A DNA stretch of 32,000 bases from an uncultured Eubacteriales bacterium. Its GTDB lineage: Bacteria; Bacillota; Clostridia; TANB77; RGIG9151. The stretch is taken from assembly GCA_964640345.1 (NCBI GenBank), contig CAZXFU010000001.1:1-32000 (forward strand). The letters are read 5' to 3'. Both the position numbers and the translations under genes were made by a program. The notes below the pieces were generated by a model. That model searched no databases, was not told where the DNA came from, and worked only from the letters and a program-made list of their open reading frames with translations. This document shows, one piece after another, positions 2,979 to 20,938 of the stretch; the first letter of the stretch is position 1, and the number at the start of each line of letters is the position of its first letter.

Positions 2979-3054
2979 AGAATTTCCTCCTTATTTACAA
3001 CGTATATATTCTAACATATCTAAAAACAAAAAAAAAGAAATTTGCGAATTTTTT

Positions 3055-3070
3055 TGTTTCACGTGAAACA
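3055..3070. other. parS centromere-like site (perfect 16-bp palindrome)
   Basis: TGTTTCACGTGAAACA matches the Firmicute parS consensus TGTTNCACGTGAAACA at all positions. It lies just upstream of parA. Confidence 0.9.
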
Positions 3071-3079
3071 GGAAACAAG

Positions 3080-3108
3080 TTGACATAACTGCCGAACTGT
3101 GCTATATT
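3080..3108 (+). promoter_or_regulatory. sigA-type promoter with extended -10
   Basis: TTGACA (3080-3085), a 17-nt spacer, then TGc-TATATT (3100-3108). It lies about 90 nt upstream of ATG 3201. Confidence 0.7.
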
Positions 3109-3134
3109 ATATATGGTTTAACTAATTTCAATTA

Positions 3135-3180
3135 CGAAGCTTTAAGCTTCGGGACGTAAGTACAGTACATTTTATGTACT
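3135..3180 (+). promoter_or_regulatory. 5' leader with two short hairpins
   Basis: CGAAGCT/AGCTTCG (3135-3151, 7 bp) and AGTACAT/ATGTACT (3164-3180, 7 bp, loop TTT). The second hairpin ends 4 nt before the SD AGAGGAGG (3185-3192). Confidence 0.4.
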
Positions 3181-3200
3181 CAATAGAGGAGGATGGTTAA

Positions 3201-4400
3201 ATGTTCAAACCTGAAGGAAAAGATATTCTCGGATGCATAGAGATTTTAAGAGCACTTAATTGCATCCCACGCTGGTCAGCACATGTTGGTTGTCTACAAG
3301 ACAACTACACAGAGGCCGCAAAATTGGCTCTCAACAGCCAAATTTCAGCACTTTTATTTGAACTCGTCGCACATGAGCAAGAGTGCGGCGTGGGATTTGC
3401 GGAGCATCCAAAGGTAAGATTTTACCTTTTGCCTCGTATCGCACTATATCGTGCTTTTGAAAAATACGAGAAGTGTGACCTGTTAGACGAGACATACTCG
3501 AAAATTTTTGAGGACAAGAAGCTAGAAGCTGCATTTATGGAGCATATGAAGAAACAGATAGTTTCTCTAACATCTCCAGAGATGTTAGCTCATATCTCTG
3601 ACCTCGAAGACACATTCGAGATGAAAATCTATAAGGCTGCTACTGCAATAGCAACCTATTATGAGGGACGTGAAATTCAAAAATACGTCTCTCCTGAGAA
3701 ATATGCTGAGATCCAGGAGCGTCAGCTCAAAAGGCTCAGCAAATATAAAGAATTTCCCATAATTAGGGAAATTCTCAACGGTGGTAAAGGAACTGAAGCT
3801 TGCAGGCTTTGTTCCTTTATCGAGAGCTTGTCCACGCTTCGCCACCGAATCCGGTGGGTAAAGCGTGTACCCTTGCGGTGCTATTCCGTACTGGGGCACA
3901 GCTTTGACGTGGCAGTTTATGATTATCTCTTGTCTTTAAGTGTAACTGAAGATCAAGAGATAGCAGAAAGAGGATTTTATGTCGGCCTGTTTCACGACGT
4001 GGCCGAGATATGGACCGGGGATATGCCAAGCCCACTAAAGGACGCCATTCCCGGTCTCAGACGGAAGACCGAGGAGCTTGAAGTCGAAGTCCTCAACTCC
4101 AAGGTATTCCCTTTAATCCCTGAGTGGTTGCGTCTCAAGTTCAAAAACGTGCAACTTGAGATGCTGCCAAACTATCTCAAAAATTTCTACAAGAAGGGTG
4201 ATAGTTTGGCTGCTGTAGTCGAGGCAGCAACACAAATTGCAGCCGGATCTACAGATCCATATTTCAGGAATGTCGTGATCGACGGCTACTTGAAAAAGGA
4301 TACTTCTTTCTCCGTGGAAAGAGATGTACTTAAGGAAATAAGAAAGGAGGCTAAAATACCTTATCTCGCAATAATTGCGAGAAAATTACATAAGAAATAA
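3201..4400 (+). CDS. tandem degenerate-HD / HD-domain phosphohydrolase, YfbR-like 5'-deoxynucleotidase family
   Basis: The C-terminal half has IRW-x13-H233, FH265D266VAEIWTGDMPSPLK and KKGD334, matching the H..HD..D pattern and the 68-residue HD-to-D spacing of E. coli YfbR. The N-terminal half repeats the scaffold (IPRW25...DNYTE-A39) with the ligand residues substituted. Codon usage is foreign (C/G-ending codons). Confidence 0.8.
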   Translation: MFKPEGKDILGCIEILRALNCIPRWSAHVGCLQDNYTEAAKLALNSQISALLFELVAHEQECGVGFAEHPKVRFYLLPRIALYRAFEKYEKCDLLDETYSKIFEDKKLEAAFMEHMKKQIVSLTSPEMLAHISDLEDTFEMKIYKAATAIATYYEGREIQKYVSPEKYAEIQERQLKRLSKYKEFPIIREILNGGKGTEACRLCSFIESLSTLRHRIRWVKRVPLRCYSVLGHSFDVAVYDYLLSLSVTEDQEIAERGFYVGLFHDVAEIWTGDMPSPLKDAIPGLRRKTEELEVEVLNSKVFPLIPEWLRLKFKNVQLEMLPNYLKNFYKKGDSLAAVVEAATQIAAGSTDPYFRNVVIDGYLKKDTSFSVERDVLKEIRKEAKIPYLAIIARKLHKK

Positions 4401-4406
4401 TTTTAA

Positions 4407-4433
4407 AGGCTACCGAAAGGTAGCCTCTTTTTT
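4407..4433 (+). terminator. intrinsic terminator
   Basis: AGGCTACC-GAAA-GGTAGCCT, an 8-bp stem, followed by CTTTTTT. It starts 7 nt after the stop codon. Confidence 0.8.
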
Positions 4434-4456
4434 GTTGGAAATAATAAAATTACACT

Positions 4457-5149
4457 TTATTTTATCTTTCTTCTCGGAAAACTTTTAGGTGTTTCCTTTG
4501 CTTTTTCAATTATTATCATAGTATGCTTTATATCTGTACCGGGCAAAACAATTTCTTCAACTTCAACAACCTTTCCTCCCAAATTTCCTATGTGACTTTT
4601 TGCATCGTCAAGTTCACCTAGATATTCTGATCCTTTCATACAAATAAATCTTCCTCCAACTCTCAAAAATGGCATACAATATTCTGATAGTACCTTCATA
4701 TTAGCTACAGCACGAGCGGTTACAACATCATATTTTTCTCTGTATTCAGGATTCTTTCCAAACTCTTCAGCTCTTCCATGGACAGCAATTATTTTATCTA
4801 ATTTTAATTCGTCAATAATATTATTTAAATATACAATTCTCTTATTAAGTGAATCTAACAACGTAATATTTGTTTCATGTGAAACAATTTTTATTGGTAT
4901 GCCCGGAAAACCCGCACCAGTGCCCACATCTATAAGACTATCCTCTGAATTTATATATTTTAAACAATATAAAGAATCAATAAAATGCTTAGTAATTATA
5001 TCTTCTTCCTCTGTTATTGCCGTCAGGTTAATTTTTTCATTCCATTCAAGCAATAATTGCTGAAACTTTTCAAATTGTTTCACGTGAAACTCATTTAGCA
5101 AAATCCCAACTTTTTCAGCATCTCTTATAAGTTTTTCTTTATTTTTCAT
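4457..5149 (-). CDS. rsmG: 16S rRNA (guanine527-N7)-methyltransferase
   Basis: SAM-binding motif [16 protein letters not shown]. The start at MKNKEK is preceded by AAGGAGGAAG. The longer track ORF (to 5215) overlaps mnmG. Confidence 0.93.
4871..4886. other. parS-like site (15/16)
   Basis: TGTTTCATGTGAAACA differs from consensus by one central C-to-T change. It lies inside rsmG. Confidence 0.45.
5076..5091. other. parS site (15/16)
   Basis: TGTTTCACGTGAAACT mismatches the consensus only at the last position. It lies inside rsmG. Confidence 0.7.
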
Positions 5150-7028
5150 TACTTCCTCCTTTTTTTTGCATTGCAATCCATACAAGCAAAACAGATATAT
5201 CTGCTGGTGAAACACCTGAAATTCTGGAAGCTTGTCCTATTGATTCCGGTTTTTGCTTATTTAATTTTTGCCTTGCTTCAAGTGCTAAGCCTTTTATTTT
5301 ATCGTAATTAATATCTTGAGGTAACATTTTTTTCTCTAACTTTTTAAATTGAGCAATCTGAATCATTTGTCTGTTAATATATCCTTCATATTTAACTTGT
5401 ATTTCAACTTGCTCCTGCTCTGCAGAGGTTAAAACAGGTCGTGACTTATCAATTGGTTCCAAATCTTTATATGTTATTTCTGTTCTCCTTAAAAGCTCTG
5501 CTAAGTGAACGCCGGTTGTAATTTCAGATGTACCTTTTTCTCTTAAAATCTTATTTACTTCATCTGTTGGTGAAATAACAGTTTCTTTAACTCTCACGAT
5601 TTCTTTTTCAATGTTTGATTTTTTAATTAAAAACTTCTCGTATCTTTCATCAGAAATTAAACCGATTTCATGCCCTATAGACGTTAATCTCATATCTGCA
5701 TTATCTTGCCTTAAAATAAGTCTGTATTCAGCTCTAGATGTCATCATTCTATAAGGTTCATTAGTTCCCTTTGTTACTAAATCATCAATTAAAACTCCTA
5801 TATACGCTTCGGATCTATCTAATGTAAGAGGTTCTTTTCCTTGTACTTTTTTTGCAGCATTAATTCCGGCAATTATTCCCTGGGCAGCAGCTTCCTCATA
5901 TCCTGAACTTCCATTTATTTGCCCGGCAAAAAACATACCTTCAATATTTTTATGCTCTAATGAACGTTTTAACTGCGTTGGGTTTATACAGTCATACTCA
6001 ATCGCATATGCCGGTCTCATAATTTTTGCATTTTCAAGTCCTTTTATACTGTGATATACTTCATATTGAACGTCCTCAGGCAAACTGGACGACATTCCCT
6101 GAACATACATTTCATCAGTGTTCTCCCCCATCGGCTCTATAAAAATTTGATGCCTTTCTTTATCCGAAAATCTAACAATTTTATCTTCAATAGATGGACA
6201 ATACCTAGGACCTATACCTTTTATATTTCCTGAATATAAAGGAGAACGATATAAATTACTTTTTATAATGTCATGAGTATGTTGATTTGTATAAGTGAGC
6301 CAACAAGGTATTTGCTCTCTAGTTAAATGTTCATTTTCAAAAGAAAACGGTACAATTTCTTCGTCTCCGGGCTGAACTTCCATTTCATCAAAATTAATAC
6401 TTCTCGCATTAATTCTTGCTGGTGTTCCGGTTTTAAACCTAAGCAGTTCAATACCGTTATCAATCAAGGATTTTGATAAGAAACTTGCAGGAAACATCCC
6501 ATCAGGTCCTCCATCATAACTTACATCTCCTAATATTATTCTACCCTTTAGGTATGTACCAGTTGCTAGAACAACAGCTTTGACTCTATATTCTCCACCT
6601 CTGGCTGTTTTTATAGAAACTACCCTTCCTTCCTCGATAACAATATCACTTATCTCAGCTTGGTTTATATCCAAATTTTCCTGTGATTCTAAAGTGTGTT
6701 TCATTTCCATCTGATACTTTCTTCTATCTGCTTGTGCTCTTAGAGAAAAAACAGCAGGACCTTTTGATTTATTAAGCATTCTTGACTGTATAAATGTCTT
6801 ATCCGTATTCTTTCCCATCTCTCCACCAAGAGCATCTATCTCTCTTACCAAGTGTCCTTTAGACGTTCCTCCGATACTAGGATTACACGGCATATTAGCA
6901 ATACTATCTAAATTGATAGAAAATACTATTGTCTTTGCTCCAAGTCTTGCAGAAGCTAATGCAGCCTCACATCCGGCGTGACCTGCCCCAATTACTGCAA
7001 CATCATAATCCCCTATTAAAAAACTCAT
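5139..7028 (-). CDS. mnmG: tRNA uridine 5-carboxymethylaminomethyl modification enzyme MnmG (GidA)
   Basis: FAD-binding motif [12 protein letters not shown], about 629 aa, with conserved mnmE-mnmG-rsmG order. ATG 7028 lies 8 nt after AAGGAG. The track start at 7037 is a GTG alternative. Confidence 0.95.
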
Positions 7029-7040
7029 TTCTCCCACTCC

Positions 7041-8411
7041 TTACTTACCCAAGCAAAACCTTGAAAATATGCCGTTTATAGTCTCTTCGCTCACATTTTG
7101 CCCTGTAATCGTTCCTAAGTTCTCAAGTATACTCTGTATATTAATTGCTATCATATCGACCGGCAAATCGTCATTTAGAGCCTTGAACGCTGAATCTATC
7201 TCTTTAAGTGCATTTAAGAGTAATTCCTTATGTCTCATGTTTGAAACTATAACATCTTCAGTTGTACTCATATTATTACTTTTCCAAAGTTTTTCAATTT
7301 CATTTTCCAAATCTTCTATTCCAATTTTTGTTTTAGTAGAAATATCCAAAACTCTTTTATCTTTAAAAATATTTTTTACATCCCACTTAGTTTTCAAATC
7401 AATTTTATTTACAATTATTATTGCTTTTTTATTTTTTATAAGATCAATAATTTCAAAATCTTCCTCTGTTAAATCTCTTGAAACATCAAAAACCGCAATT
7501 ATCATATCGGCATCTTCAATTTCCTTTTTTGCTTTTTCTACTCCAATTTCTTCGATTCTATCATCAGTTTTTCTTATACCTGCTGTATCAATTATTCTAA
7601 GCGGTATTCCACGAATATTCACAAACTCTTCAATTGTGTCACGAGTTGTTCCGGGAATATCAGTAACAATAGCTCTTTCTTCTCTTAACAAAACATTCAT
7701 CAAAGAAGATTTTCCAACATTAGGTTTGCCTAAAATAGCTGTTCTAACACCTTCTTTTAATACTCGACCTTCTTCAAAGGAATTACACAATCTTTCAAGT
7801 TCTTCTTTTGATTTAGTTAAAACATTGAAAATTGTTTCACGTGTAACATCTTCAATTTCATGCTCAGGATAATCTATTCCGGCATCTATTTGTATTAAAA
7901 CATCATACAATTTAGTCTGAACATTATTTATCTTTTCCGACAAAAAACCTTCTAACTGAGTGAGAGATATTTTTCTTGCCTTATCGGTCTTCGATGTTAT
8001 TATATCAATAATTGCCTCAGCCTGTGTTAAATCAATTCTTCCATTTAAAAAGGCTCGTTTTGTAAATTCTCCGGGTTCTGCCATTCTTGCTCCGTTTTTT
8101 ATAACTATTTCTAAAATTCTTTGCATTATAACAGTACCGCCATGGCAATTGATTTCTACAATATTTTCCTTTGTATAACTATGCGGTGCTTTAAAAAAAG
8201 AAACCATAACTTCATCAATTTTTTCTTTTCCATCAAAAATATGACCATATTTAATTACATTTGGTAAAGGATTTGAAACATCAAAAAAAGCATCTTTTGG
8301 GCGAAAAATCTTTGACACCACTAAAAATGCTTCTTCTCCACTAATCCTTATTATCCCTATTCCACCAACACCGGGGGAAGTGGCAATAGCAGCGATTGTG
8401 TTTTTTTCCAT
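7041..8411 (-). CDS. mnmE: tRNA modification GTPase MnmE (TrmE)
   Basis: G-domain motifs GKPNVGKSSL, DTAG and NKID, with a C-terminal FCLGK. The start at MEKNTIAAIAT is preceded by GGAG. Confidence 0.95.
   Translation of the reverse strand: MEKNTIAAIATSPGVGGIGIIRISGEEAFLVVSKIFRPKDAFFDVSNPLPNVIKYGHIFDGKEKIDEVMVSFFKAPHSYTKENIVEINCHGGTVIMQRILEIVIKNGARMAEPGEFTKRAFLNGRIDLTQAEAIIDIITSKTDKARKISLTQLEGFLSEKINNVQTKLYDVLIQIDAGIDYPEHEIEDVTRETIFNVLTKSKEELERLCNSFEEGRVLKEGVRTAILGKPNVGKSSLMNVLLREERAIVTDIPGTTRDTIEEFVNIRGIPLRIIDTAGIRKTDDRIEEIGVEKAKKEIEDADMIIAVFDVSRDLTEEDFEIIDLIKNKKAIIIVNKIDLKTKWDVKNIFKDKRVLDISTKTKIGIEDLENEIEKLWKSNNMSTTEDVIVSNMRHKELLLNALKEIDSAFKALNDDLPVDMIAINIQSILENLGTITGQNVSEETINGIFSRFCLGK
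7833..7848. other. parS site (15/16)
   Basis: TGTTTCACGTGTAACA has one mismatch to consensus. It lies inside mnmE. Confidence 0.6.
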
Positions 8412-10517: not shown

Positions 10518-10652
10518 TTAAACACAAAGAACTTCTCTACCCTTAGCACGTCTTGCACTAAGAACTTTTCTTCCTCCTGCTGTCTTCATTCTAGCTCTGA
10601 AGCCATGAACCTTTTTCATTTTTCTGTTATTAGGTTGAAATGTTCTTTTCAT
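10518..10652 (-). CDS. rpmH: 50S ribosomal protein L34
   Basis: Not in the ORF track. My translation is [44 protein letters not shown] (44 aa). Confidence 0.95.
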
Positions 10653-10701
10653 AATTTACACCTACTTCCTCATAAAACATTTTCCTTTTAAAGGCGTTCT
10701 T

Positions 10702-10730
10702 ATTATACTACATAAGGCTTGGAGTGTCAA
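10702..10730 (-). promoter_or_regulatory. perfect-consensus sigA promoter for rpmH-rnpA
   Basis: On the minus strand this reads TTGACA-17 nt-TATAAT. It lies about 50 nt upstream of the rpmH start. Confidence 0.8.
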
Positions 10731-10746
10731 TACTCAAAAAAACATA

Positions 10747-10775
10747 TTGACTTTTTTAAACTTTTTATGTAAAAT
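10747..10775 (+). promoter_or_regulatory. candidate sigA promoter for the 171-aa orphan ORF
   Basis: TTGACT-17 nt-TAAAAT. It is divergent from the rpmH promoter and 16 nt away from it. Confidence 0.55.
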
Positions 10776-10837
10776 ATTTTTGGTAATAATAATATAAATC
10801 CTTGATACAATTAAGTCAAGGAAAAAGGAGGAATTCG

Positions 10838-11353
10838 ATGAACAACTTGCGGACGGTTTCTTTCAAAAAAAGTTCCTTTGAGACATGGCATCTCAAGGAA
10901 GTTGAGGGCTGGGCTATTTTCCCCGGCACTAAGAATTCTTTCTGGTTGCCGGGATATGGAGATGTGCTAGTTTTAAATGATTCTTTGGCACATTTGCTTT
11001 CCTGCACCAGAAGGCTCTTTAACGGTTCTTTCATCATAAAAACCATTAAAGAGCCTGAGTACGAAGAATATCTTGGAGGAAGAGAACCCGACCGACCGAC
11101 AGGAAATTTTGTTTATAGACAGATTGCAAAATTTCTGCCTATCCCAGATGACAGGTACTATTACCAGTTCCTGTTGTCTGAAGATGATGATATCGGATTT
11201 TCTAAAGATTTCGATATCATTATCGATAGCTGCTTCGAGAATGTTGTTCATTCCGAGCAGTATATTCGGACTGTTTATGCTGCTACAGTATCGACGGCTC
11301 CTTTGATACTGGACAGCCAAAATCGGGTATGTATTTCGCCTTTTTTTAGCTAA
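10838..11353 (+). CDS. hypothetical protein, compositionally foreign orphan (171 aa)
   Basis: ATG lies 6 nt after AGGAGG. Hand counts give about 40-50% GC with C/G-ending codons, and shadow ORFs appear in other frames. I recognise no motif, TM helix or signal peptide. The track start at 10802 is an unlikely TTG. Confidence 0.7.
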   Translation: MNNLRTVSFKKSSFETWHLKEVEGWAIFPGTKNSFWLPGYGDVLVLNDSLAHLLSCTRRLFNGSFIIKTIKEPEYEEYLGGREPDRPTGNFVYRQIAKFLPIPDDRYYYQFLLSEDDDIGFSKDFDIIIDSCFENVVHSEQYIRTVYAATVSTAPLILDSQNRVCISPFFS

Positions 11354-11360
11354 AAAAGGA

Positions 11361-11382
11361 CCCCTCTTAATTGAGGGGTTTT
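11361..11382. terminator. bidirectional intrinsic terminator
   Basis: CCCCTC-TTAATT-GAGGGG followed by TTTTC on the plus strand and by TCCTTTTTT on the minus strand. It lies between the convergent orphan ORF and comEA. Confidence 0.75.
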
Positions 11383-11387
11383 CATTT

Positions 11388-12050
11388 TTAAACTGTAATT
11401 TTATCTTTTATCTTTTCATACTTTTTCTCTCCTATCCCGGAAACATTCTTTATATCTTCAATGTCGTTAAATTTTCCGTTTTTATTTCTATAATCAATTA
11501 TCTTTTGAGCAGTTGAGTCACCAATCCCATTTATTGACGTTAGCTGTTCTTTAGTCGAAAAATTTATATTTATTTTATTACTTTCTTCAAAGATTTCATT
11601 TTCTGTAACACCACTTGTTACATTTATAACAGGTGTTGAATTATAATAAGTTGTTTTACTTACAACTTTTTTTACTTCCTTCTTTGGTATCACAATTTTC
11701 ATGGCATCTGATAGAATATACGCTAAATTAACTGTGGACGTGTCTGCTTTTTCAGTTACGCCTCCTGCCAAGTTTATCGCATCATTAATTCTTGAATTTT
11801 CAGGTAATTCATATAACCCCGGACTTACAACCTCTCCTCCAACATCTACAAAAATAGTTTTTACCTCTTCAATTTTTTCTACTTCTTCTCTTTCAACATC
11901 AATCATTTCTCCACTCTCTATTTCATTAATTATTTCATTTTTTTGTTCCTTCATATAAAGTATGTTATATAATAATGCCGATAGTAAAAATGTAGTAATA
12001 ACTACAGAAATTATTGTTTTTTTATTTAGTTCGAATTTCAAAATTTCCAC
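11388..12050 (-). CDS. comEA: competence protein ComEA (helix-hairpin-helix DNA receptor)
   Basis: N-terminal TM helix, SLBB-like middle region, and C-terminal tandem HhH (INGIGDSTAQKIIDYR...VSGIGEKKYEKI). Confidence 0.88.
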   Translation of the reverse strand: MEILKFELNKKTIISVVITTFLLSALLYNILYMKEQKNEIINEIESGEMIDVEREEVEKIEEVKTIFVDVGGEVVSPGLYELPENSRINDAINLAGGVTEKADTSTVNLAYILSDAMKIVIPKKEVKKVVSKTTYYNSTPVINVTSGVTENEIFEESNKININFSTKEQLTSINGIGDSTAQKIIDYRNKNGKFNDIEDIKNVSGIGEKKYEKIKDKITV

Positions 12051-12127
12051 TCCTTTCCAAAATTAGAATATCTTGTTTTTCTTTTTTTGTCAACAGTGGA
12101 AAAATTTGCCGATAAATGGAGGTTATC

Positions 12128-13405
12128 ATGAAGAAAATTAAGCATAAAAAAATTCCATTGATTTTTACATTTTTTATTTTTATTTTAATAACAGTTCTTT
12201 GCCCTATAAAATCCTATGCATTAGATGTATACTGCGATTCAGCCATTCTTATAGATGCAAAAACAGGTAATGTTTTATATGAAAAAAATTCAAACCAAAA
12301 AGCATATCCTGCCAGTACAACAAAAATTCTAACAGCATACATCGCATTATCTCAAGGCTATTCAATGGATACAGAAATAATTCCATCAAGATATGCTGTG
12401 ATGTCAATTCCACAAGGGAGTACACTTGCATATTTTTCTGAAGGCGAAAAGCTTACTTTAGAACAGGTATTATACGGTTTATTGCTCCCATCTGGTAATG
12501 ACGCTGCAAATATACTAGCCGAACATGTTTCCGGTTCAATTTCAAATTTTGTAGATCTAATGAACACTACTGCTCGTAACCTAGGTGCAACTAATTCTAA
12601 TTTTGTAAATGCAAACGGATTACACGACGATAATCACTATACAACAGCTGCAGACTTGGCAAAAATAGCCTATAATGCTATGAAAATCGAGAAATTCCGA
12701 GAAATCGTATCTCAATCAAAATATGAAATGCCTGCAACGAATGTTTCAAAAACAAAAAGACCTTTCAATAATACCAATAAATTGCTAACATCAGGAGGCG
12801 AATACTTTTTCTCTGCCGCAAATGGAATAAAAACAGGTTATACATCACAAGCAGGCAATTGTCTGGTAGCATCTGCTTCAAAAGACGGTCTCGACCTTAT
12901 AACAGTTGTTCTGGGCGGAAGAATTATACCGGTAAACAAATCAACTGTTTATCTAGATACTTTAACATTATTTAACTACGGCTTTGAAAACTACCATAAT
13001 CAACAATTGATCGCTCAAAATCAATTTGTAACAACTTGTATTCCTAAAAAATCAAGAAAAGAAACCTTAAATTTATCTGCAGGTTCGGGATTAAATGTAA
13101 CTGTTAAAAATGGGGATACACCTGTGTTTGACAAGATTATCACTTTAAACGACAACATCGTTGCTCCCATCAAAAAAGGAGATGTACTCGGAACAGTTTC
13201 TTATACTAGAGATGGAGAAACTATAGGCATAATAAATTTATTGGCTCAAAATGACGTTGAAAAAGAGCCTGTTATATTTGTAATCTTAAGAATATTGCTT
13301 TATTTAGTGATTTCTGTTATAATACTTGGTGTTGGACTTAGAATTTTCAACGAAATACGAAAATTTATAAAAAAAATTTCAAAAAAAAGAAAAAAGGTGA
13401 AATAA
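12128..13405 (+). CDS. D-alanyl-D-alanine carboxypeptidase (PBP5/DacB-DacF type)
   Basis: Signal peptide, SxxK (PASTTK), SxN (PSGND), KTG (IKTGYT) and a C-terminal membrane anchor. GGAGG lies 5 nt before ATG 12128. Confidence 0.9.
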   Translation: MKKIKHKKIPLIFTFFIFILITVLCPIKSYALDVYCDSAILIDAKTGNVLYEKNSNQKAYPASTTKILTAYIALSQGYSMDTEIIPSRYAVMSIPQGSTLAYFSEGEKLTLEQVLYGLLLPSGNDAANILAEHVSGSISNFVDLMNTTARNLGATNSNFVNANGLHDDNHYTTAADLAKIAYNAMKIEKFREIVSQSKYEMPATNVSKTKRPFNNTNKLLTSGGEYFFSAANGIKTGYTSQAGNCLVASASKDGLDLITVVLGGRIIPVNKSTVYLDTLTLFNYGFENYHNQQLIAQNQFVTTCIPKKSRKETLNLSAGSGLNVTVKNGDTPVFDKIITLNDNIVAPIKKGDVLGTVSYTRDGETIGIINLLAQNDVEKEPVIFVILRILLYLVISVIILGVGLRIFNEIRKFIKKISKKRKKVK

Positions 13406-13939
13406 ATGGGATTAATCAACTTCATAAACAGTATTGGAAAAAGCTTCATGGATTTTGCTTCTTCTTCTTCTGACTTTAGGTGTGCACAATGTATAAAATG
13501 CAAGCAATGTGTAAAAACATTACCAAATTCCGAACAAGTAAGAGTTTTTACTTGTCCAGCTGTAGATCCCAGTCTAGCAGATGACGAATATATTGATTCA
13601 TTACTACCTGATGTTATAAACGGAATTAGCCCTGAATACATAGAAGCTTATAATAACAACAGAGATGCTATTTACTCGTATTTGTACTCTAACCCGACTG
13701 TTTGCTCAAATTTGGCTACTCCTCTTTTATTTGAAAACTGTACTCCTATCACTACTTATGACGAATTACTATATTTTTATAAAGCGACAGGCTGTCCTAA
13801 ATTCAGACCATTTATAGATACTTCAAATATTGTCGGTTATAACGATAACCTACAAACATTCGTAGCACCTAATATTGTTTCTTTTGATTCACTACCGGCT
13901 ACTGATAAAACTATGATAACCCAAACAGAAGGCTGGTAA
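13406..13939 (+). CDS. hypothetical protein with N-terminal CX2CX2CX2C...CP cluster
   Basis: The ATG immediately follows the dac stop (TAA-ATG), suggesting translational coupling. Cysteines are C26/C29/C32/C35, then C50-P51, plus three more. I recognise no family. Confidence 0.6.
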   Translation: MGLINFINSIGKSFMDFASSSSDFRCAQCIKCKQCVKTLPNSEQVRVFTCPAVDPSLADDEYIDSLLPDVINGISPEYIEAYNNNRDAIYSYLYSNPTVCSNLATPLLFENCTPITTYDELLYFYKATGCPKFRPFIDTSNIVGYNDNLQTFVAPNIVSFDSLPATDKTMITQTEGW

Positions 13940-13965
13940 TAAAAATTACCGGCCTTCTGTTTGGG
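13920..13965. terminator. long hairpin between convergent genes
   Basis: A 21-bp stem with one G-U pair and an AAAA loop. It overlaps the stop of the 177-aa ORF and ends 1 nt before the spo0A stop. There is no clear U-tract on either strand. Confidence 0.55.
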
Positions 13966-13966
13966 C

Positions 13967-14746
13967 TTACACCTCTGTCTTCATTTCCAACTTCATTTTA
14001 TCTGCAATCATAGCAATAAACTCACTATTCGTAGGTTTTCCTTTAGCAACATTTATCGTATATCCAAACACATTCTGTAAAGTATCTAGTCTCCCCCTGC
14101 TCCACGCAACCTCTATTGCATGTCTTATCGCCCTTTCTACCCTACTTGGTGTTGTATTATAAGTAGTTGCAACACTAGGATACAAAGTTTTTGTAACAGC
14201 ACCAAGCAAATCCTGATTATGTATTGACAAAATTATCGCCTCACGCAAGTATTGATGACCTCTTATATGAGCCGGAACACCAATATCATGCATTATATTA
14301 GTGATTTCTTTCTCTAAATTTTCATCTGTTACTGTTCTTTTTCTTTCTACTATCTTTGTACTTTTTTCTTTTTTAACAATTCTCCTTATACGTTCGGTCA
14401 ATATAGAAAAATCAAAAGGTTTCAACATAAAGCAATATGCACCTAAAGATATTGCTTCCCTTATCATAATATCTTGCGACAACGAAGATAAAACCAAAAA
14501 CACAGGTCTTTTATCAATCTTCTTATTTTGAACTGCTTTTAAAACCCCAATACCATCAATTTTAGGCAACAACATCTCAAGCACAACAAAGTCCGGTTTC
14601 TTTTCTGCAATCATTTCAACTGCATCTGCTCCGTTATCAACCACTCCGTCTACTACAAAATCCTTTTGTTGTGACAAATACTCCCTCAATTTTGCCGATG
14701 TTTCCACATTACCATCTGCAATTAAAACTCTAATTTCCTCGCCCAT
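13967..14746 (-). CDS. spo0A: sporulation master regulator Spo0A
   Basis: N-terminal receiver domain (VLIADGN...[12 protein letters not shown]) and Spo0A-specific C-terminal [18 protein letters not shown] 14746 lies 7 nt after GGAGG. Confidence 0.93.
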
Positions 14747-14881
14747 CGTCAAACCTCCTCCTTTTTTCTAGCCAAACATTCTTCTTCTGTTAAATTTTGT
14801 TTAACTTTCGTGAAAAAAGCATTATTTTCTTTATTCACAAATTTATTATAAAAACTTGTCTAAAAAAAATAAGGTAAAATT

Positions 14882-14919
14882 TGTCGATGAACATTGTATT
14901 TTTTGTATCTATTTCGACA
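14882..14919. promoter_or_regulatory. 0A-box pair upstream of spo0A
   Basis: TGTCGAT (14882-14888, 6/7) and TTCGACA (14913-14919), the reverse complement of the TGTCGAA 0A box. This fits Spo0A autoregulation. Confidence 0.45.
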
Positions 14920-15559
14920 AAATAGTATATATAATTTTATTTTCTGTTAATTTTATGACATCTTTGACAACTTCTTGTATTTTTTCTTCAGGAATTTCTA
15001 TTTCTATTTGAACATTCTCAGCAAATATAGATGTATACTGGATTTGAGATTTATCAAAATAAAATAAAACTTTATCTTTTATTTCATATCCACAAATAAA
15101 TCTTACTTTTGTATATTTTATTATTTCATATATCACAGCCTTTTCTAATGCTTTTTTTGCAGCTTCTGAATATGCTCTGATAAGTCCGCCTTTTCCAAGT
15201 AAAATTCCTCCAAAATACCTTGTTACAACTACCAAAACATTTGTTATTTCTCTCTTTTGAAGTATGCTAAAAATAGGCAGACCGGCAGTTCCCTGTGGCT
15301 CACCGTCATCACTATATTTACATATGTTATTCGGTAAAATATATGCATAAACATTATGTCTTGCATCCCAAAACTCTTTTTTTATCTCACTTATCTTATT
15401 TTCCGCCTCTTCTTTTGAATCAACAAGAAAGACACTTGCGATAAACCTAGACTTTTTTTCTGTTATTTCATCTCTAGCCTGATTTTTTATAGTAAAAATA
15501 TTATTGCACCTCCAATTGAGCAAACTTAGCCATAAGTCTCTTTTTTCCCGAACGTTCAA
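14909..15559 (-). CDS. yigZ: YigZ/IMPACT family protein (UPF0029)
   Basis: KKSRFIA...DDGEPQGTAGLPI motifs. The start is uncertain: the track start is a TTG 59 nt inside pcrA, and ATT at 15499 has a well-placed GGAGGTG. Confidence 0.8.
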   Translation of the reverse strand: MNVREKRDLWLSLLNWRCNNIFTIKNQARDEITEKKSRFIASVFLVDSKEEAENKISEIKKEFWDARHNVYAYILPNNICKYSDDGEPQGTAGLPIFSILQKREITNVLVVVTRYFGGILLGKGGLIRAYSEAAKKALEKAVIYEIIKYTKVRFICGYEIKDKVLFYFDKSQIQYTSIFAENVQIEIEIPEEKIQEVVKDVIKLTENKIIYTILSK

Positions 15560-17768
15560 ACAAAATCTCTAACATTAAATCATCATCTTCAGGGGTAATC
15601 TTTGTAATAACACCTGCACCAAACCTTTTATGCATTACAAATTTACCTTCTTCAAATACGGATAAATCTGCGTGTATCTGCGTCGCAGCCGGTTTGTATC
15701 CTTCTATATTCTTAATATAAGATCCTCCATTAGCAGCTGCAGAAACTTTTGACTTATAACTTGTATCATCAAATAACTTGTACTCTGTTACCTTTGAAGA
15801 ATAAAAATCATTTGAATTGTATTCACTTAGAAGCTCTTTTTGATATCCTTCCATAAGTGTTTCAGGTATCTCTTCTAAAAATCTTGACGGTTTATTTATA
15901 CTTGTGTTTCCAAATAATGTTCTTCTTCTTGCACATGTTATATAAAGTTTTTCCCTTGCTCTTGTAATCCCAACATAACAAAGTCTTCTTTCTTCTTCTA
16001 TTTCGGATGGATCACCCATAGAACGATATCCCGGAAAAACGCCTTCTTCCATTCCGGGAATGAACACAACCGGGAATTCCAATCCTTTTGCACTGTGCAT
16101 TGTCATTAAAGTAATATATTCTTTTTCTTCGGTATCTGCATTATCCAAATCCGACACTAAAGCCATATTTTCCAAAAAGTCTGCTAAACTTGGTTCTGCA
16201 GCTTCTTTTTCATACTCTTCAGCAACAGCAACCAATTCGGCTATATTTTCTATTCTCGTTTGATTCTCAATAGTATCTTCTTGTTGCAAAGCACTTATAT
16301 ACCCTGTTTCGTTAACAACCTTTGTTATTATCTGAGAAACCAACATATTCTCATTATTCGCTTCATTTTTTATTCCTTCAATCAAATTGTAAAATTCCTT
16401 TATTCCATTCTTCGCCCTAGCTACATCTGGGCATACATCTATGTTTCGTAGGATTTCCCAACAAGAAGTGTTTTTTTCTGTCGCAGATTTTTGTATGTTT
16501 TCTATAGCAGTTTTTCCTATACCCCTTTTTGGCTCATTAATTATTCTTTTAAGGCTTACATTGTCCATAGGGTTATATAATACCCTTAAATATGAAATAA
16601 CGTCTTTAATCTCCTTTCTGTCGTAAAATTTAAGACCTCCTACAACTTTATAAGGTAAAGCCTCACTCATCAAATAATCTTCAATTATTCTGGATTGTGC
16701 GTTTATTCTGTATAAAATTCCAAAATCACTGTATTTCCTTTCTTTTGATACTAATGATTTTATTTGCCCAATTATGTACTTAGCTTCATCTTTCTCATCT
16801 TCTGCCTTATAAAATTGTATTTTTTCTCCCTCTTCGTTTTCTGTCCAAAGTTTTTTTTGCTTTCTTCCTTCATTGTTTTTTATAACTTCGTTTGCAGCGT
16901 TTAATATATTGCTTGTAGAACGATAATTTTGCTCAAGTTTTATTGTTTTTGCACCAGGAAATGCCTTTTCAAAATCTAATATATTTCTCATATCTGCTCC
17001 CCTAAAACCATATATACTCTGATCATCATCACCTACTACACATAAATTTCCACTTCCTAAAGCAAGTAAACTTACTAAAGTAAACTGAGCTTGGTTTGTA
17101 TCCTGATACTCATCTACTAATATATATTTAAACTTGTTTTGATAATATGTTAAAACATCCGGATTTTCCAAAAAAAGTTGTGTTGTTTTCATTATCAAAT
17201 CGTCAAAATCCAATGCATTATTTTCCTTTAATTTTTTCTCGTATAACATATAAACATTTGCAACCTTAGCTAATCGAAAATTTGTCTGATTTTGTTTTAA
17301 ATATTCTTTTGGTTCAACTAATTGATTTTTTGCCTTACTTATTTCACTGATAAGGTATTGAACCGAAAAGTTTTTATCATCTATTTCTAATTCTTTTTGA
17401 CATTCTTTTATCAATGTTTTTTGATCTGCCGTATCAAATATTACAAAACTTTTTTCATATCCTATTTTTTCAATATCTCTTCTTAATATTCTAACACATG
17501 TCGAGTGGAAAGTGCTTATCCAAATATCTTCAGCTTCCTCTGTTACTAATTTTTCAACCCTTTCTTTCATTTCTTTTGCTGCTTTGTTAGTAAAAGTTAT
17601 TGCTAATATATTATATGGTTTTACATTTTTTTCTCCTATCAAATACGCTATTCTATATGTAAGTACTCTTGTTTTTCCAGAGCCTGCTCCTGCAATTACT
17701 AATAAAGGTCCTTCTGTGGTTTTTACCGCTTCTAACTGTTCCGGATTCAATTTATCTAATTCTAACAT
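15501..17768 (-). CDS. pcrA: ATP-dependent DNA helicase PcrA (UvrD family)
   Basis: AGAGSGKTRVLT, VDEYQDTN, TMHSAKGLEF and CYVGITRAREKLY, with a C-terminal Tudor-like tail. Confidence 0.94.
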   Translation of the reverse strand: MLELDKLNPEQLEAVKTTEGPLLVIAGAGSGKTRVLTYRIAYLIGEKNVKPYNILAITFTNKAAKEMKERVEKLVTEEAEDIWISTFHSTCVRILRRDIEKIGYEKSFVIFDTADQKTLIKECQKELEIDDKNFSVQYLISEISKAKNQLVEPKEYLKQNQTNFRLAKVANVYMLYEKKLKENNALDFDDLIMKTTQLFLENPDVLTYYQNKFKYILVDEYQDTNQAQFTLVSLLALGSGNLCVVGDDDQSIYGFRGADMRNILDFEKAFPGAKTIKLEQNYRSTSNILNAANEVIKNNEGRKQKKLWTENEEGEKIQFYKAEDEKDEAKYIIGQIKSLVSKERKYSDFGILYRINAQSRIIEDYLMSEALPYKVVGGLKFYDRKEIKDVISYLRVLYNPMDNVSLKRIINEPKRGIGKTAIENIQKSATEKNTSCWEILRNIDVCPDVARAKNGIKEFYNLIEGIKNEANNENMLVSQIITKVVNETGYISALQQEDTIENQTRIENIAELVAVAEEYEKEAAEPSLADFLENMALVSDLDNADTEEKEYITLMTMHSAKGLEFPVVFIPGMEEGVFPGYRSMGDPSEIEEERRLCYVGITRAREKLYITCARRRTLFGNTSINKPSRFLEEIPETLMEGYQKELLSEYNSNDFYSSKVTEYKLFDDTSYKSKVSAAANGGSYIKNIEGYKPAATQIHADLSVFEEGKFVMHKRFGAGVITKITPEDDDLMLEILFERSGKKRLMAKFAQLEVQ

Positions 17769-17896
17769 GTTTATCTCCTTTCTTCTTTCTTAGATATTTT
17801 ATCTTGTTTACTTTTCTATTTCAACCATTAGAAAAATTTTATTTTCTTTTTTCTTGAAAATAAAAACTTTTTCTGTTATATTGTTACTGATGTTGA

Positions 17897-18134
17897 TTAT
17901 CAACAATTTTATCAACATCAAAAAATGCTTTATTTTACGAATGATAAGAATTTCAAAGCTTTATTTATGCTTTATCAACAATTGTGGATAACTATGTGGA
18001 TAACTTTATATTATTCCCATGTTGATAAAAACTATTCAAATAGCTATGCTTTGAAATTTTTTAATTATATAGCTATTTTTTTATAAAAAAATTTGTTGTT
18101 TCATGCTATTAGCACTTCTTATAACTTATCAACA
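17897..18134. other. oriC upstream DnaA-box cluster plus AT-rich unwinding region
   Basis: Perfect TGTGGATAA at 17983-17991 and 17995-18003. TTATCAACA or TGTTGATAA variants at 17897, 17909, 17972, 18020 and 18126. An AT-rich tract at about 18061-18100. Gene strand bias switches here. Confidence 0.85.
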
Positions 18135-18172
18135 AGTTTTTTAACAGCAATATCTTTGGGAAGGGGATTAAA

Positions 18173-19507
18173 ATGTCAAATATTTTATCTGAGGAATGGC
18201 AAAAAATAATTGATTGTTTAAAAAACGAAACCAGTGTAATAAGCTTTAACACGTGGATTTCTCCACTAAAACCTTTATATATCGAAGATAATGTTTTGTA
18301 TTTAGAAGTACCAACAGATTTCCACAGAACATATTTAAAAACTAATTTTCACGAACTGTTAAAAAATACTGTCGTATTCGTAAAAAACATTGAATTAGAT
18401 ATTAAATATTTGATACCAGAAGAAGCTAAAAAACAAGAAGAAAAAAAAATACCAGAAATAAAAACTGTTGAAAAATCTCCAACCGGACTAAACCCAAGAT
18501 ATATCTTTGAAAATTTTGTAGTAGGGAATAACAATAGATTTGCACATGCTGCATCTTTAGCGGTTGCCGAATCTCCGGCAAAAGCGTATAACCCTTTGTT
18601 TTTATACGGTGGAGTAGGCCTTGGAAAAACACATTTAATGCATGCTATAGGTCATTATATATTACAACAGCATCCGGATCAAAAAATACTTTATATTACA
18701 TCTGAAAAATTTACCATTGATTTCATAAATGCAATAAAAGAGCAAGGTGCAGAAGGAAATAATGCTTTTAGAAACAGATACAGAAATGTTGACGTTTTGC
18801 TAGTAGATGATATTCAATTTATTGCTGGGAAAGAAGGAACTCAAGAGGAGTTTTTCCACACCTTTAATGCTTTATATGAAGCAAATAAACAAATAATCAT
18901 TTCAAGCGACAGACCGCCAAAAGACATTGAACCTTTGGAAGACAGGCTTCGTTCACGATTTGAATGGGGTCTTACTGCCGATGTTCAAATGCCCGATTAT
19001 GAAACAAGAATTGCAATTTTAAGTAAAAAAGCACAACTAGACGGAATAGAAGTACCGGACGAAATAAATGCTTTTATAGCCGAACGTGTCGATTCTAACA
19101 TAAGAGAGCTAGAAGGTTCGTTAAATCGTGTTTTAGCTCTTGCACGTCTTAATAATCAACCTTTATCTTTAGAACTTGCAAAACAAGCATTAAAAGATAT
19201 TACAAATTCACCTACAAAAGCTATTACTATAGAACTTATTCAAAAAATTGTAGCAAAATACTTTGGAATAAAAGTAGATGATCTAAAATCTACCAAAAAG
19301 AGTGCTGATATTGCTATTCCAAGGCAAATTGCAATGTATTTATGTCGTGATATTGCAAATGTATCTTTACCGAAAATAGGTTTTGAATTCGGAAAGAGAG
19401 ATCATTCAACCGTTATTCATGCTTGTAATAAAATCTCAAAAAACATAACGGAAGATGATGAATTAAATAAAAAAGTAGAAGAAATAAAGAAAATTTTATT
19501 CTACTAA
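18173..19507 (+). CDS. dnaA: chromosomal replication initiator DnaA
   Basis: AAA+ motifs GGVGLGKTHLMHA and LLVDDIQF, and a C-terminal DNA-binding domain (DHSTVIHA). Confidence 0.97.
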   Translation: MSNILSEEWQKIIDCLKNETSVISFNTWISPLKPLYIEDNVLYLEVPTDFHRTYLKTNFHELLKNTVVFVKNIELDIKYLIPEEAKKQEEKKIPEIKTVEKSPTGLNPRYIFENFVVGNNNRFAHAASLAVAESPAKAYNPLFLYGGVGLGKTHLMHAIGHYILQQHPDQKILYITSEKFTIDFINAIKEQGAEGNNAFRNRYRNVDVLLVDDIQFIAGKEGTQEEFFHTFNALYEANKQIIISSDRPPKDIEPLEDRLRSRFEWGLTADVQMPDYETRIAILSKKAQLDGIEVPDEINAFIAERVDSNIRELEGSLNRVLALARLNNQPLSLELAKQALKDITNSPTKAITIELIQKIVAKYFGIKVDDLKSTKKSADIAIPRQIAMYLCRDIANVSLPKIGFEFGKRDHSTVIHACNKISKNITEDDELNKKVEEIKKILFY

Positions 19508-19756: not shown

Positions 19757-19837
19757 TTACTATAACTAAAATAACTTTTTAATATTTTAATTATAATAAA
19801 AAGAAAAACTTTTTAGCCATATAAAGGAGTGTTTTTT

Positions 19838-20938
19838 ATGAAACTTTCTATTGAAAAAGAAAAACTTTTAATCGGTATAAATGCATCACAAAAAGCTGTA
19901 GCGGGAAAAACAACTATGCCTATACTTGAATGTTTTCATTTAATTGCAAAAGATAACACATTGTTTATAACAGCAACAGATTTAGAACTTGGGATAGAAT
20001 ACAGAATACAGACAGAAATAACAGAAGAAGGAGAAACAACAGTTGGTGCAAGTATTTTTTCAGAAATAATACGAAAGTTACCAGACAGCACAATTAATTT
20101 ATCAACAAATGAACAAAATCTTCTTATAATAGAATGTGAAGGATCTTTATTTAAAGTTGTTACTACACCCAGTGATGATTTTCCTGTATTTCCTGAAATA
20201 AATGCAGAGCAAACAATAAAAATAAAACAAAATGATTTAAAAGAAATGATAAGAAAGACAATTTTCGCTGTGGGAATAGATGAATCAAGACCTATTTTTA
20301 CAGGATGTTTACTTGAAAAAAAAGACGGAATAATGAATATGGTTGCATTAGATGGTTTTAGACTTGCACTCCAGACAAAAGTAAATTTAGAAGAAAGCTC
20401 TGAAGAATTTTCTGTTGTTATTCCGGGAAAAACGTTAAATGAAATTTCGAAAATTTTGGTTGATGACAGTCAAATAATAAAAATAGGCGTTGAAAAGAAC
20501 CAAAGTTTGTTTGAAATTCCTAATTGTACAGCTGTTACAAGGGTATTGGAAGGAAAATTCTTAGATTACAGACAAGCGATTCCTAATGAGAAAGAGCTAA
20601 GAGTAAAAGCGAATAGAAACGTTTTGTTAAGTTCACTTGAAAGAGTTGCTGTTATGTCAAGAGATGAAAAGCAACTACCTATAAAGATAACAATAGCAGA
20701 TTCTTTAATGGTTATTCAATGTGCAGTGCAATCCGGAGATGTTAGGGAAGAAGTTATCGTAGAAAGTATAGGAAAGCCGTTGGAAATAGGTTTTAACCTT
20801 AAATATCTAATTGATGCAGTTAGAGCTGTTGAAGACGAAAATATTATTTTAGATTTCGGTTCATCTGTTTCTCCGTGTGTTATAAGACCGGAAGAAGGAG
20901 AAGAATATATTTACATGGTTTTACCTGTTAGAATATAG
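19838..20938 (+). CDS. dnaN: DNA polymerase III beta sliding clamp
   Basis: 366 aa starting MKLSIEKEKLL, with LDGFRLA and the conserved position after dnaA. AAGGAG lies upstream of ATG 19838. Confidence 0.95.
   Translation: MKLSIEKEKLLIGINASQKAVAGKTTMPILECFHLIAKDNTLFITATDLELGIEYRIQTEITEEGETTVGASIFSEIIRKLPDSTINLSTNEQNLLIIECEGSLFKVVTTPSDDFPVFPEINAEQTIKIKQNDLKEMIRKTIFAVGIDESRPIFTGCLLEKKDGIMNMVALDGFRLALQTKVNLEESSEEFSVVIPGKTLNEISKILVDDSQIIKIGVEKNQSLFEIPNCTAVTRVLEGKFLDYRQAIPNEKELRVKANRNVLLSSLERVAVMSRDEKQLPIKITIADSLMVIQCAVQSGDVREEVIVESIGKPLEIGFNLKYLIDAVRAVEDENIILDFGSSVSPCVIRPEEGEEYIYMVLPVRI

Follow-up and report, generated by a model that had tools for sequence, protein, structure and literature searches.

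What is a gene of foreign composition doing in the gap between parA and rsmG, how long has it been there, and what does its product do? These questions are raised by the first 32,000 nucleotides of contig CAZXFU010000001.1 (assembly GCA_964640345.1) from an uncultured Eubacteriales bacterium (GTDB lineage Bacteria; Bacillota; Clostridia; TANB77; RGIG9151); this whole stretch is referred to below as the window. On its plus strand, at 3201-4400, lies a 399-residue open reading frame (ORF) for a protein with two HD-fold domains, here called the HD gene. In Bacillus-type synteny the corresponding slot of the B. subtilis origin region presumably holds noc. A sequence-only reading of the window had proposed that the HD gene is a horizontally acquired cassette encoding a fused pseudo-HD plus HD protein related to E. 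coli YfbR, which acts in defence or salvage.

The answer favoured here is that the gene encodes a two-domain HD phosphohydrolase of the YfbR/HDDC2 branch, with a predicted role in the salvage of deoxynucleoside monophosphates (dNMPs), and that it is a long-standing resident of its site while belonging to a transfer-prone family. As a whole we regard this reading as reasonably probable; its parts differ in strength and are discussed in turn.

A predicted catalytic domain of the YfbR type

The C-terminal half of the protein (residues 199-399; 3795-4400 on the plus strand, including the stop codon) matches the Pfam family PF12917 (YfbR-like) with 75.1 bits against a gathering cut-off of 25.9 over residues 206-356, and PF13023 (HD_3) with 43.8 bits against a cut-off of 22.5. 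In the Protein Data Bank (PDB), E. coli YfbR (2paq) is matched at an E-value (E) of 2.6e-9, and the top Foldseek matches are YfbR, Lin2634, OxsA, DatZ and HDDC2, with identities of ~20-22% in the fold alignments.

In YfbR, H33, H68, D69 and D137 are the metal ligands and R18, W19 and D77 account for deoxyribose specificity; the substrate residues define the preference for dNMPs, and W19 excludes ribonucleotides (PMC8177086). A further residue, E72, is labelled catalytic in the YfbR structure (PMC5098729). The C-domain has R218-W219, H233, H265-D266, E269, D274 and D334 at the positions of YfbR R18-W19, H33, H68-D69, E72, D77 and D137, and the spacing from the HD pair to the last aspartate is 68 residues in both proteins. 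All motif positions of the alignment that had been made by eye thus check, as does the spacing. The eight residues are invariant among 27 homologs; in a broader set of 56 members seven of the eight remain invariant and W219 is conserved in at least 90%. As judged from these alignments, the C-domain has kept all the residues with which YfbR binds its metal, catalyses the reaction and recognises deoxyribose: a predicted mononuclear H...HD...D metal site (H233, H265, D266 and D334), the predicted sugar contacts R218, W219 and D274, and the putative catalytic E269. The domain would be expected to hydrolyse dNMPs to deoxynucleoside and phosphate in a metal-dependent manner, as a 5'-deoxynucleotidase, and W219 may exclude ribonucleotides as W19 does in YfbR.

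The likeness to E. coli YfbR (PF12917/COG1896; structures 2paq, 2par and 2pau) thus covers the fold, the metal site, the deoxyribose contacts and the catalytic glutamate. It does not extend to the architecture: YfbR consists of two identical single-domain subunits of ~200 residues, whereas the window protein has 399 residues and two HD-fold domains, the first of which appears to be dead. OxsA and cyanophage S-2L DatZ have the same fold and act on triphosphates (DatZ on dATP, OxsA on oxetanocin phosphates); both are single-domain proteins, unlike the tandem protein discussed here.

A degenerate HD domain at the N-terminus

The N-terminal half (residues 1-198; 3201-3794) is invisible to Pfam, in which no model covers the N-domain and none matches the first 198 residues. 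Its relationship to the C-domain emerges from four other comparisons. An hhalign alignment of the two halves is colinear over 166 columns (E 1.5e-3), and the N-domain profile finds the YfbR-like protein Lin2634 (3mzo) in the PDB at E 6e-4. When searched against 1.84 billion representative proteins, the same profile also picks up two genuine HD proteins with one domain each, P0123 (E 2.9e-5) and P0142 (E 6.3e-4). An AlphaFold2 model of the N-domain alone has a predicted local distance difference test score (pLDDT) of 90, and its top 16 PDB matches in Foldseek are all of the YfbR/HDDC2/OxsA type, with target-normalised template-modelling scores (TM-scores) of 0.5-0.69. The fused pseudo-HD plus HD architecture proposed from the sequence is therefore borne out by profile-profile alignment, by the PDB profile match, by the single-domain HD matches and by the modelled fold.

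What the N-domain lacks is the metal site. In the profile alignment, the ligand positions of the window protein are occupied by K41, R84-A85 and T148, and an intact H...HD...D is found in none of the family members examined. The loss of ligands had been recognised before, in a register that is off by two to three residues at the first positions (A39 and E87-K88, now K41 and R84-A85; T148 is unchanged). The profile register is supported by one subclade, P0014-P0023, which holds H41, H84 and E148 in exactly these columns. Within the N-domain, W25, K41 and E155 are conserved among 56 members, and R24-W25 and D93, the equivalents of the YfbR deoxyribose contacts R18/W19/D77, are kept in most members of the family. 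In the P0014-P0023 subclade R24, W25 and D93 are lost together. These comparisons show that the N-domain is a degenerate copy of a YfbR-type HD domain that has lost its metal ligands. Lin2634 (3mzo), HDDC2/YGK1, PF0395 (1xx7) and AF1432, the single-domain YfbR-like proteins that give its best profile and fold matches, keep their metal ligands, whereas here Lys, Arg-Ala and Thr are found instead.

The model of the full-length protein (pLDDT 93, predicted TM-score 0.93) packs the two domains against each other with confidence. With two domains of the same fold and metal ligands lost in one of them, the protein may be a single-chain pseudo-dimer in which the dead N-domain would probably replace the second YfbR protomer. 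Because the N-domain keeps the R18/W19/D77 equivalents in most members, it can be proposed to serve as a non-catalytic regulatory site that would bind a deoxynucleoside or nucleotide. If the dead domain is such a ligand sensor, the protein would offer a compact case of a homodimeric metabolic enzyme that has become a regulated single-chain enzyme.

A small family with a fixed architecture

Proteins with this tandem arrangement are scarce. A word-indexed search of 5.8 billion proteins returned 28 clusters, and the N-domain profile run against the 1.84 billion representatives returned 121 clusters at 50% identity. The architecture of the family is fixed, since nearly all of the 121 clusters are 370-450 residues long and carry the pseudo-HD domain at the N-terminus. 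On the strength of these searches the tandem architecture appears to define a small and rare family. None of its members bears a name in any source, the labels being only the generic 'hydrolase' or 'HD domain-containing protein', and no paper on a tandem YfbR-like protein was found. Nor does any solved structure cover both domains, the best query-normalised TM-score being 0.41. While the YfbR-type 5'-deoxynucleotidases are well known as a class, a fixed tandem with a pseudo-enzyme that keeps its sugar-binding residues lacks a solved structure; neither the tandem enzyme nor its locus overturns current understanding.

Viral contigs, GenBank phages and BFVD contain single-domain HD relatives only and no full-length relative, and a phage origin of the tandem protein was discarded on this ground. 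The match to PHROG 30941 (E 1.8e-14) is colinear over residues 123-331.

Distant members of the family (33-36% identity) reside at other chromosomal sites, including dut|asnS/guaA, the vicinity of sigE/sigG, cotJ, nusA and smc. Other HD-domain genes are encountered in the neighbourhood as well. One distant-clade genome has a gene for a 952-residue CYTH + HD protein (L009, 2957-5818) between unk164, a gene described below, and the HD gene. In one subclade, a generic HD protein (PF01966; 506-509 residues) is encoded between tdk and a DUF4446 gene (L005 6000-7529, L072 5074-6594); it is absent from the window.

A transcription unit next to parS

The HD gene is a self-contained transcription unit that consists of a promoter, a leader, one ORF and a terminator. 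It is flanked by parA (2202-2978) and rsmG (4457-5152), both on the minus strand, the latter convergent with the HD gene. A sigma-A-type promoter, TTGACA-17-(TG)TATATT, is located at 3080-3108 on the plus strand; it agrees with the consensus at 11 of 12 positions and has the upstream TG. The leader that follows (~92 nt, 3109-3200, plus strand) contains a hairpin, CGAAGCTT-T-AAGCTTCG, at 3135-3151 and the Shine-Dalgarno (SD) sequence AGAGGAGG at 3185-3192. Downstream of the ORF an intrinsic terminator, AGGCTACC-GAAA-GGTAGCCT followed by a T-run, occupies 4407-4434; it can be read on the minus strand too and would also serve the convergent rsmG. The promoter, SD and GAAA-loop terminator that the sequence-only reading had assigned to the gene were thus all located.

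Immediately upstream lies a perfect parS, TGTTTCACGTGAAACA, at 3055-3070, 10 nt from the -35 box of the HD gene. The window has four parS-like sites in total (3055-3070, 4871-4886, 5076-5091 and 7833-7848), whereas 0.09 are expected by chance. The three that do not abut the HD gene fall within rsmG and mnmE and have 0-1 mismatch on one strand.

The gene is transcribed head-on to replication, as had been proposed: it lies on the plus strand, while dnaA (18173-19507) and dnaN (19829-20938), identified by Pfam, and the minimum and turn of the cumulative GC skew agree in placing the origin at ~18-19.5 kb.

The leader folds with a z-score of -2.0. Rfam returned no family at a meaningful score for the leader, and a riboswitch or other known RNA was rejected, as Rfam in E-value mode gave only chance-level small-RNA matches near the terminator. 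RNAalifold found no consensus structure over eight leaders. Leader stems in the window and in the relatives L005, L071 and L041 covary by eye (GCTT...AAGC, GGTT...AACC, GATT...AATC), and a pseudo-SD, AAAGGAGG, is found 3' of the leader hairpin, far upstream of the real SD.

Codon usage and composition of the HD gene

The composition of the HD gene differs from that of its surroundings. Its GC content is 43.4%, compared with 31-35% for the flanking genes and 32.4% for the window, and its GC at third codon positions (GC3) is 0.445, compared with 0.17-0.29 in 24 other genes of the window. The anomaly ends at the boundaries of the coding sequence, with intergenic regions of 30% GC on both sides; GC1 and GC2 are somewhat raised as well. 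The claim of a foreign composition is hence real and confined to the coding sequence, but the hand-counted GC samples on which it was first based overstated the difference. What sets the gene apart is a shortage of A-ending codons: host genes have a fraction (A3) of 0.41-0.44, the HD gene one of 0.29 and its relatives 0.11-0.33, with T3 roughly at the host level and T-ending codons not depleted. The codons avoided are TTA, ATA, AGA, TCA, ACA and CCA.

The same pattern recurs across the family. In 13 of the 15 loci first examined the gene has a GC3 of 0.32-0.60 and its neighbours 0.10-0.25, and most of the additional loci examined later also show a raised GC3. Within the clade of the window the values range from 0.23 to 0.445. 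Two members from other hosts are instructive. In a metagenome-assembled genome (MAG) of an Oscillospiraceae bacterium with 40% GC, the family member is host-like, and the codon profile of this host resembles the 'anomalous' signature. In a Flavobacteriia MAG (L076, 8001-9206), on the other hand, the family member is AT-richer than its host, with a GC3 of 0.17 versus 0.35-0.45. The family is therefore a compositional misfit in both directions, depending on the host. A nearby MIP channel gene of the Flavobacteriia MAG (L076, 6006-6710) is likewise AT-rich (GC3 0.19, neighbours 0.35-0.45).

Nor is the HD gene alone in its codon preference. Four unrelated families in these genomes have the same shortage of A-ending codons, namely unk171, the x146/x234 genes, unk164 and the HD gene (HD2) of a second clade. 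The codon fractions of these low-A-ending sets correlate at 0.71-0.85 with one another and at 0.42-0.71 with host genes. In their codon fractions, the modules appear to carry a foreign signature that resembles a Clostridial genome of ~40% GC.

Several simple explanations of the bias were discarded. High expression is one: rpmH and rpsU use host-type A-ending codons (AGA, ACA, GGA) and have a GC3 of 0.14-0.22, so that the comparison with ribosomal protein genes suggested by the sequence-only reading sets the HD gene apart from them. Head-on orientation as the sole cause is contradicted by tdk, PBP5 and unk177, which are head-on too and have a normal composition. A conserved antisense ORF behind the avoidance of TTA, CTA and TCA was also rejected, as the antisense ORFs are short (67-104 residues) and none spans the gene.

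Long residence and a probable allele replacement

A compositionally foreign gene with its own promoter and terminator invites the explanation that it was inserted recently. The comparison with relatives leads to a different conclusion. Although the sampling of clade relatives is thin, nine distinct genomes were found to have the gene, at 42-100% identity, between parA and rsmG and always in one orientation; those named are the window itself (= L017), L001, L005, L041, L042, L044, L071 and L072. The parS site lies upstream of the HD gene in all six aligned relatives, the promoter TTGACATAA...TGnTAtAAT is conserved in six loci, and over six genomes the tree of the gene is congruent with those of rsmG and mnmG. 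No sampled relative has an empty gap, and an exact look-up of ParA returned the same genome only. The window-type allele was found in none of the GTDB representative genomes, among which no genome of this clade was recovered. No mobility genes (integrase, transposase) are present at the locus, and a search for flanking att-like repeats gave only one weak two-copy repeat (26 nt, 77% identity). In the clade of the window, the HD gene has occupied the parA|rsmG gap, directly to the right of parS, for a long time. The claim that it was horizontally acquired holds at the level of the family, and probably of the allele, but the gene is neither private to this genome nor recent. Finding the same gene with host-like composition at this site in close relatives had been named as evidence that would speak against acquisition; the gene is indeed at the site, and its composition there is mostly not host-like.

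Long residence does not mean an undisturbed history. When the window is compared with its closest relative, L042, sliding identity delineates a block with a separate history (3036-4494), which begins just to the right of parS and reaches the 3' end of rsmG. Nucleotide identity is ~69% within the block and 87-98% in the flanks. The rate of nonsynonymous divergence (dN) of the gene is 0.162, compared with 0.005-0.06 for the flanks; its synonymous divergence (dS) is saturated, compared with 0.41-0.49; and the distance at four-fold sites is ~2.0 in the block, compared with 0.29-0.48. The discordance with the flanks is thus sharp in this pair, yet the six-genome tree is congruent and the subclade of L005, L071 and L072 shows no excess, the nucleotide divergence of its HD gene being equal to that of the flanks. 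Hypermutation limited to the transcription unit is contradicted by this flank-like divergence, which makes allele replacement by recombination the better reading of the difference between the window and L042. The allele was probably replaced in the lineage of the window or in its sister lineage.

The gap also takes up additional genes. In L071 (3546-3986) and L072 (9099-9803) an extra GC3-rich ORF of 146 or 234 residues separates parS from the HD gene; L005 and the window lack it. The first 20 residues of the two products are common, and beyond these they are unrelated. Each extra ORF has its own terminator and its own promoter copy, TTGACATAAT...TATAAT, which duplicates the promoter of the HD gene. 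These cassettes with duplicated promoters make the gap look like a small variable locus that holds promoter-gene-terminator modules. On the left, the perfect parS bounds the divergent block and likewise the inserted extra cassettes of relatives. The misfit in both directions, the differing chromosomal sites, the window allele block unlike its flanks and the extra cassettes together point to a transfer-prone gene family.

Phage morons may serve as an analogy: like the HD unit, which lies between two operons and in relatives adjoins a second such module with the same promoter, they are independent promoter-gene-terminator modules of atypical composition. The analogy makes no claim of membership; unlike morons, the HD unit is chromosomal, beside parS and near oriC, outside any prophage, and fixed across the clade.

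How, then, are the foreign codons to be explained? A recent, strain-specific insertion into an empty gap would account for the composition and for the stand-alone promoter and terminator, but nine clade genomes have the gene at this site, with identities as low as 42%, and the locus shows neither notable flanking direct repeats nor mobility genes nor a phage- or plasmid-like setting; we consider such an insertion highly improbable. A more serious contender holds that the codon usage is actively maintained in a vertically inherited gene and is not a trace of transfer, either by selection (for example the avoidance of U34 tRNAs that read A-ending codons, or mRNA stability) or by mutational conditions peculiar to a head-on unit under strong transcription. 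That the anomaly persists although the flanks are near synonymous saturation across the clade, and in a gene whose tree is congruent, speaks for it; so do the specific depletion of A-ending codons, which leaves the T-ending ones as they are, the sharing of this signature by four unrelated families, the stop of the anomaly at the coding boundaries and the coincidence of the window-L042 divergent block with the transcription unit. It is less easily reconciled with the host-like member in the 40% GC host and the opposite anomaly in Flavobacteriia, with compositionally normal head-on genes, with the raised GC1 and GC2, or with the L005 subclade, which lacks excess divergence; moreover, a GC3 spread of 0.23-0.445 within the clade is what different stages of amelioration would produce. 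On balance, maintained codon usage seems to us possible but rather unlikely. The favoured reading, a resident gene from a transfer-prone family, allows that the GC3 spread may reflect incomplete amelioration plus re-import of alleles. Whichever applies, the locus is a clean natural case for the persistence or re-import of foreign codon usage in a very AT-rich genome, and it also bears on whether the gap adjoining parS is a recombination hotspot.

Two further gene families share the low-A-ending signature and the neighbourhood. The head-on gene unk171 (window 10802/10838-11353, plus strand) has a GC3 of 0.42 and few A-ending codons; in L001, L005 and L071 it likewise follows rpmH. Across three genomes the amino-acid identity is 33-38% for unk171 and 40-60% for the HD gene, compared with 72-88% for the flanks; since both diverge far beyond the flanks, atypical codon usage goes together with faster evolution in both. 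The unk164 family (L004 9323-9817, L012 5288-5791, L009 2301-2906) has a GC3 of 0.45-0.47 and adjoins or lies near the HD gene in the distant clade. Neither unk171 nor unk164 has a Pfam or PHROG match, and homology between these GC-rich companions was rejected (hhalign probability 0.3%).

Deoxynucleotide salvage or defence

The genomic neighbours of the family point to nucleotide metabolism. In the clade of the window, tdk lies 2.4 kb from the HD gene. In the distant clade dut adjoins it, with guaA and hpt close by. In an Oscillospiraceae MAG (L075) the family member adjoins the operon of a Bmp-type ABC transporter, a type that carries nucleosides. In T. brucei, thymidine kinase shares a pyrimidine pathway with a YfbR homolog (PMC5098729). 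The four independent genomic contexts make salvage the better-supported reading, with support that remains modest, since none of the neighbours is co-transcribed with the gene. The physiological role would accordingly be sought in deoxynucleotide salvage or pool homeostasis and not in defence. Of the two roles proposed earlier, 'defence or salvage', the neighbours thus favour the latter, while defence finds no PADLOC match, no island and no full-length phage relatives on its side.

Defence nevertheless deserves a hearing. In this scenario the protein depletes or corrupts the deoxynucleotide pools upon phage infection, with the dead domain as the sensor. The depletion of nucleotides is an established antiviral strategy, the gene evolves faster than its neighbours (40-60% versus 72-88% amino-acid identity), and a stand-alone module of foreign composition in a variable locus that also harbours uncharacterised cargo genes would fit such an effector. 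SAMHD1-like dGTPases and dCTP deaminases offer a likeness in that they belong to the HD superfamily or act on deoxynucleotides, but they differ in HD subfamily and in architecture: the fold here is of the YfbR monophosphatase type, and SAMHD1/dGTPase structures reach a TM-score of only 0.32-0.36, normalised to the N-domain query. PADLOC gave no significant match, the only one being to Cas10 at E 0.005 and 14 bits, and none of the ~20 loci examined lies in a defence island, the neighbours being housekeeping genes. The gene is carried by all nine sampled clade genomes and is hence not patchy, its conserved near-consensus sigma-A-type promoter suggests constitutive expression, and in L005, L071 and L072 it diverges no faster than its flanks. 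A defence effector appears very unlikely in this light. The identity of the substrate is a subtler matter. The enzyme might act on deoxynucleoside triphosphates (dNTPs) like DatZ, dephosphorylate sequentially like OxsA, or remove non-canonical or damaged nucleotides in a house-cleaning capacity. In favour of this stand the high structural ranking of OxsA and DatZ, the matches of the HD core to PHROG families with a dATP triphosphohydrolase annotation, the adjacent dut of the distant clade and the missed NCBIfam cut-off for YfbR. Since YfbR is nevertheless the best match in both sequence and fold, and the equivalents of the YfbR-specific R18, W19, D77 and E72 are invariant, a different substrate is conceivable but doubtful.

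It is important to point out what weighs against the favoured reading of a long-resident gene for a dNMP phosphohydrolase. The score against NF003009, the NCBIfam equivalog for E. coli YfbR, is 49.5 bits with a cut-off of 122, so the protein is a member of the YfbR family and not an ortholog of E. coli YfbR. The substrate is predicted from a fold whose relatives include the dNTP-directed DatZ and OxsA. The nucleotide-metabolism neighbours are divergent from or convergent with the HD gene. The residue swap in P0014-P0023 implies that the function of the N-domain is not the same throughout the family. Finally, vertical inheritance together with near-saturated flanks means that the persisting foreign codons are not fully explained by incomplete amelioration.

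A more far-reaching proposal would combine the two halves of the analysis: the HD gene and the other low-A-ending modules would form an exchangeable accessory pool at a parS hotspot, with the N-domain as a sensor that gates a dNMP phosphatase. We judge this to be improbable. If it were true, a mobile gene pool would use the partition locus near the origin as a landing pad, possibly for control of nucleotide pools or for counter-defence.

Further observations on the origin region

Outside the HD gene, the region between parB and parA is a mosaic when L005 is compared with L072: segments with a nucleotide identity of 99-100% take turns with others of 79-90%, a pattern that indicates recent homologous recombination around the partition locus. 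Closer to the origin, the usual adjacency of rpmH and dnaA is broken by ~7.5 kb in the window (~10518-18172), where unk171, a comEA-like gene, the gene of a PBP5-type carboxypeptidase, spo0A (13967-14752), a UPF0029 gene and the gene of a UvrD/PcrA helicase are found.

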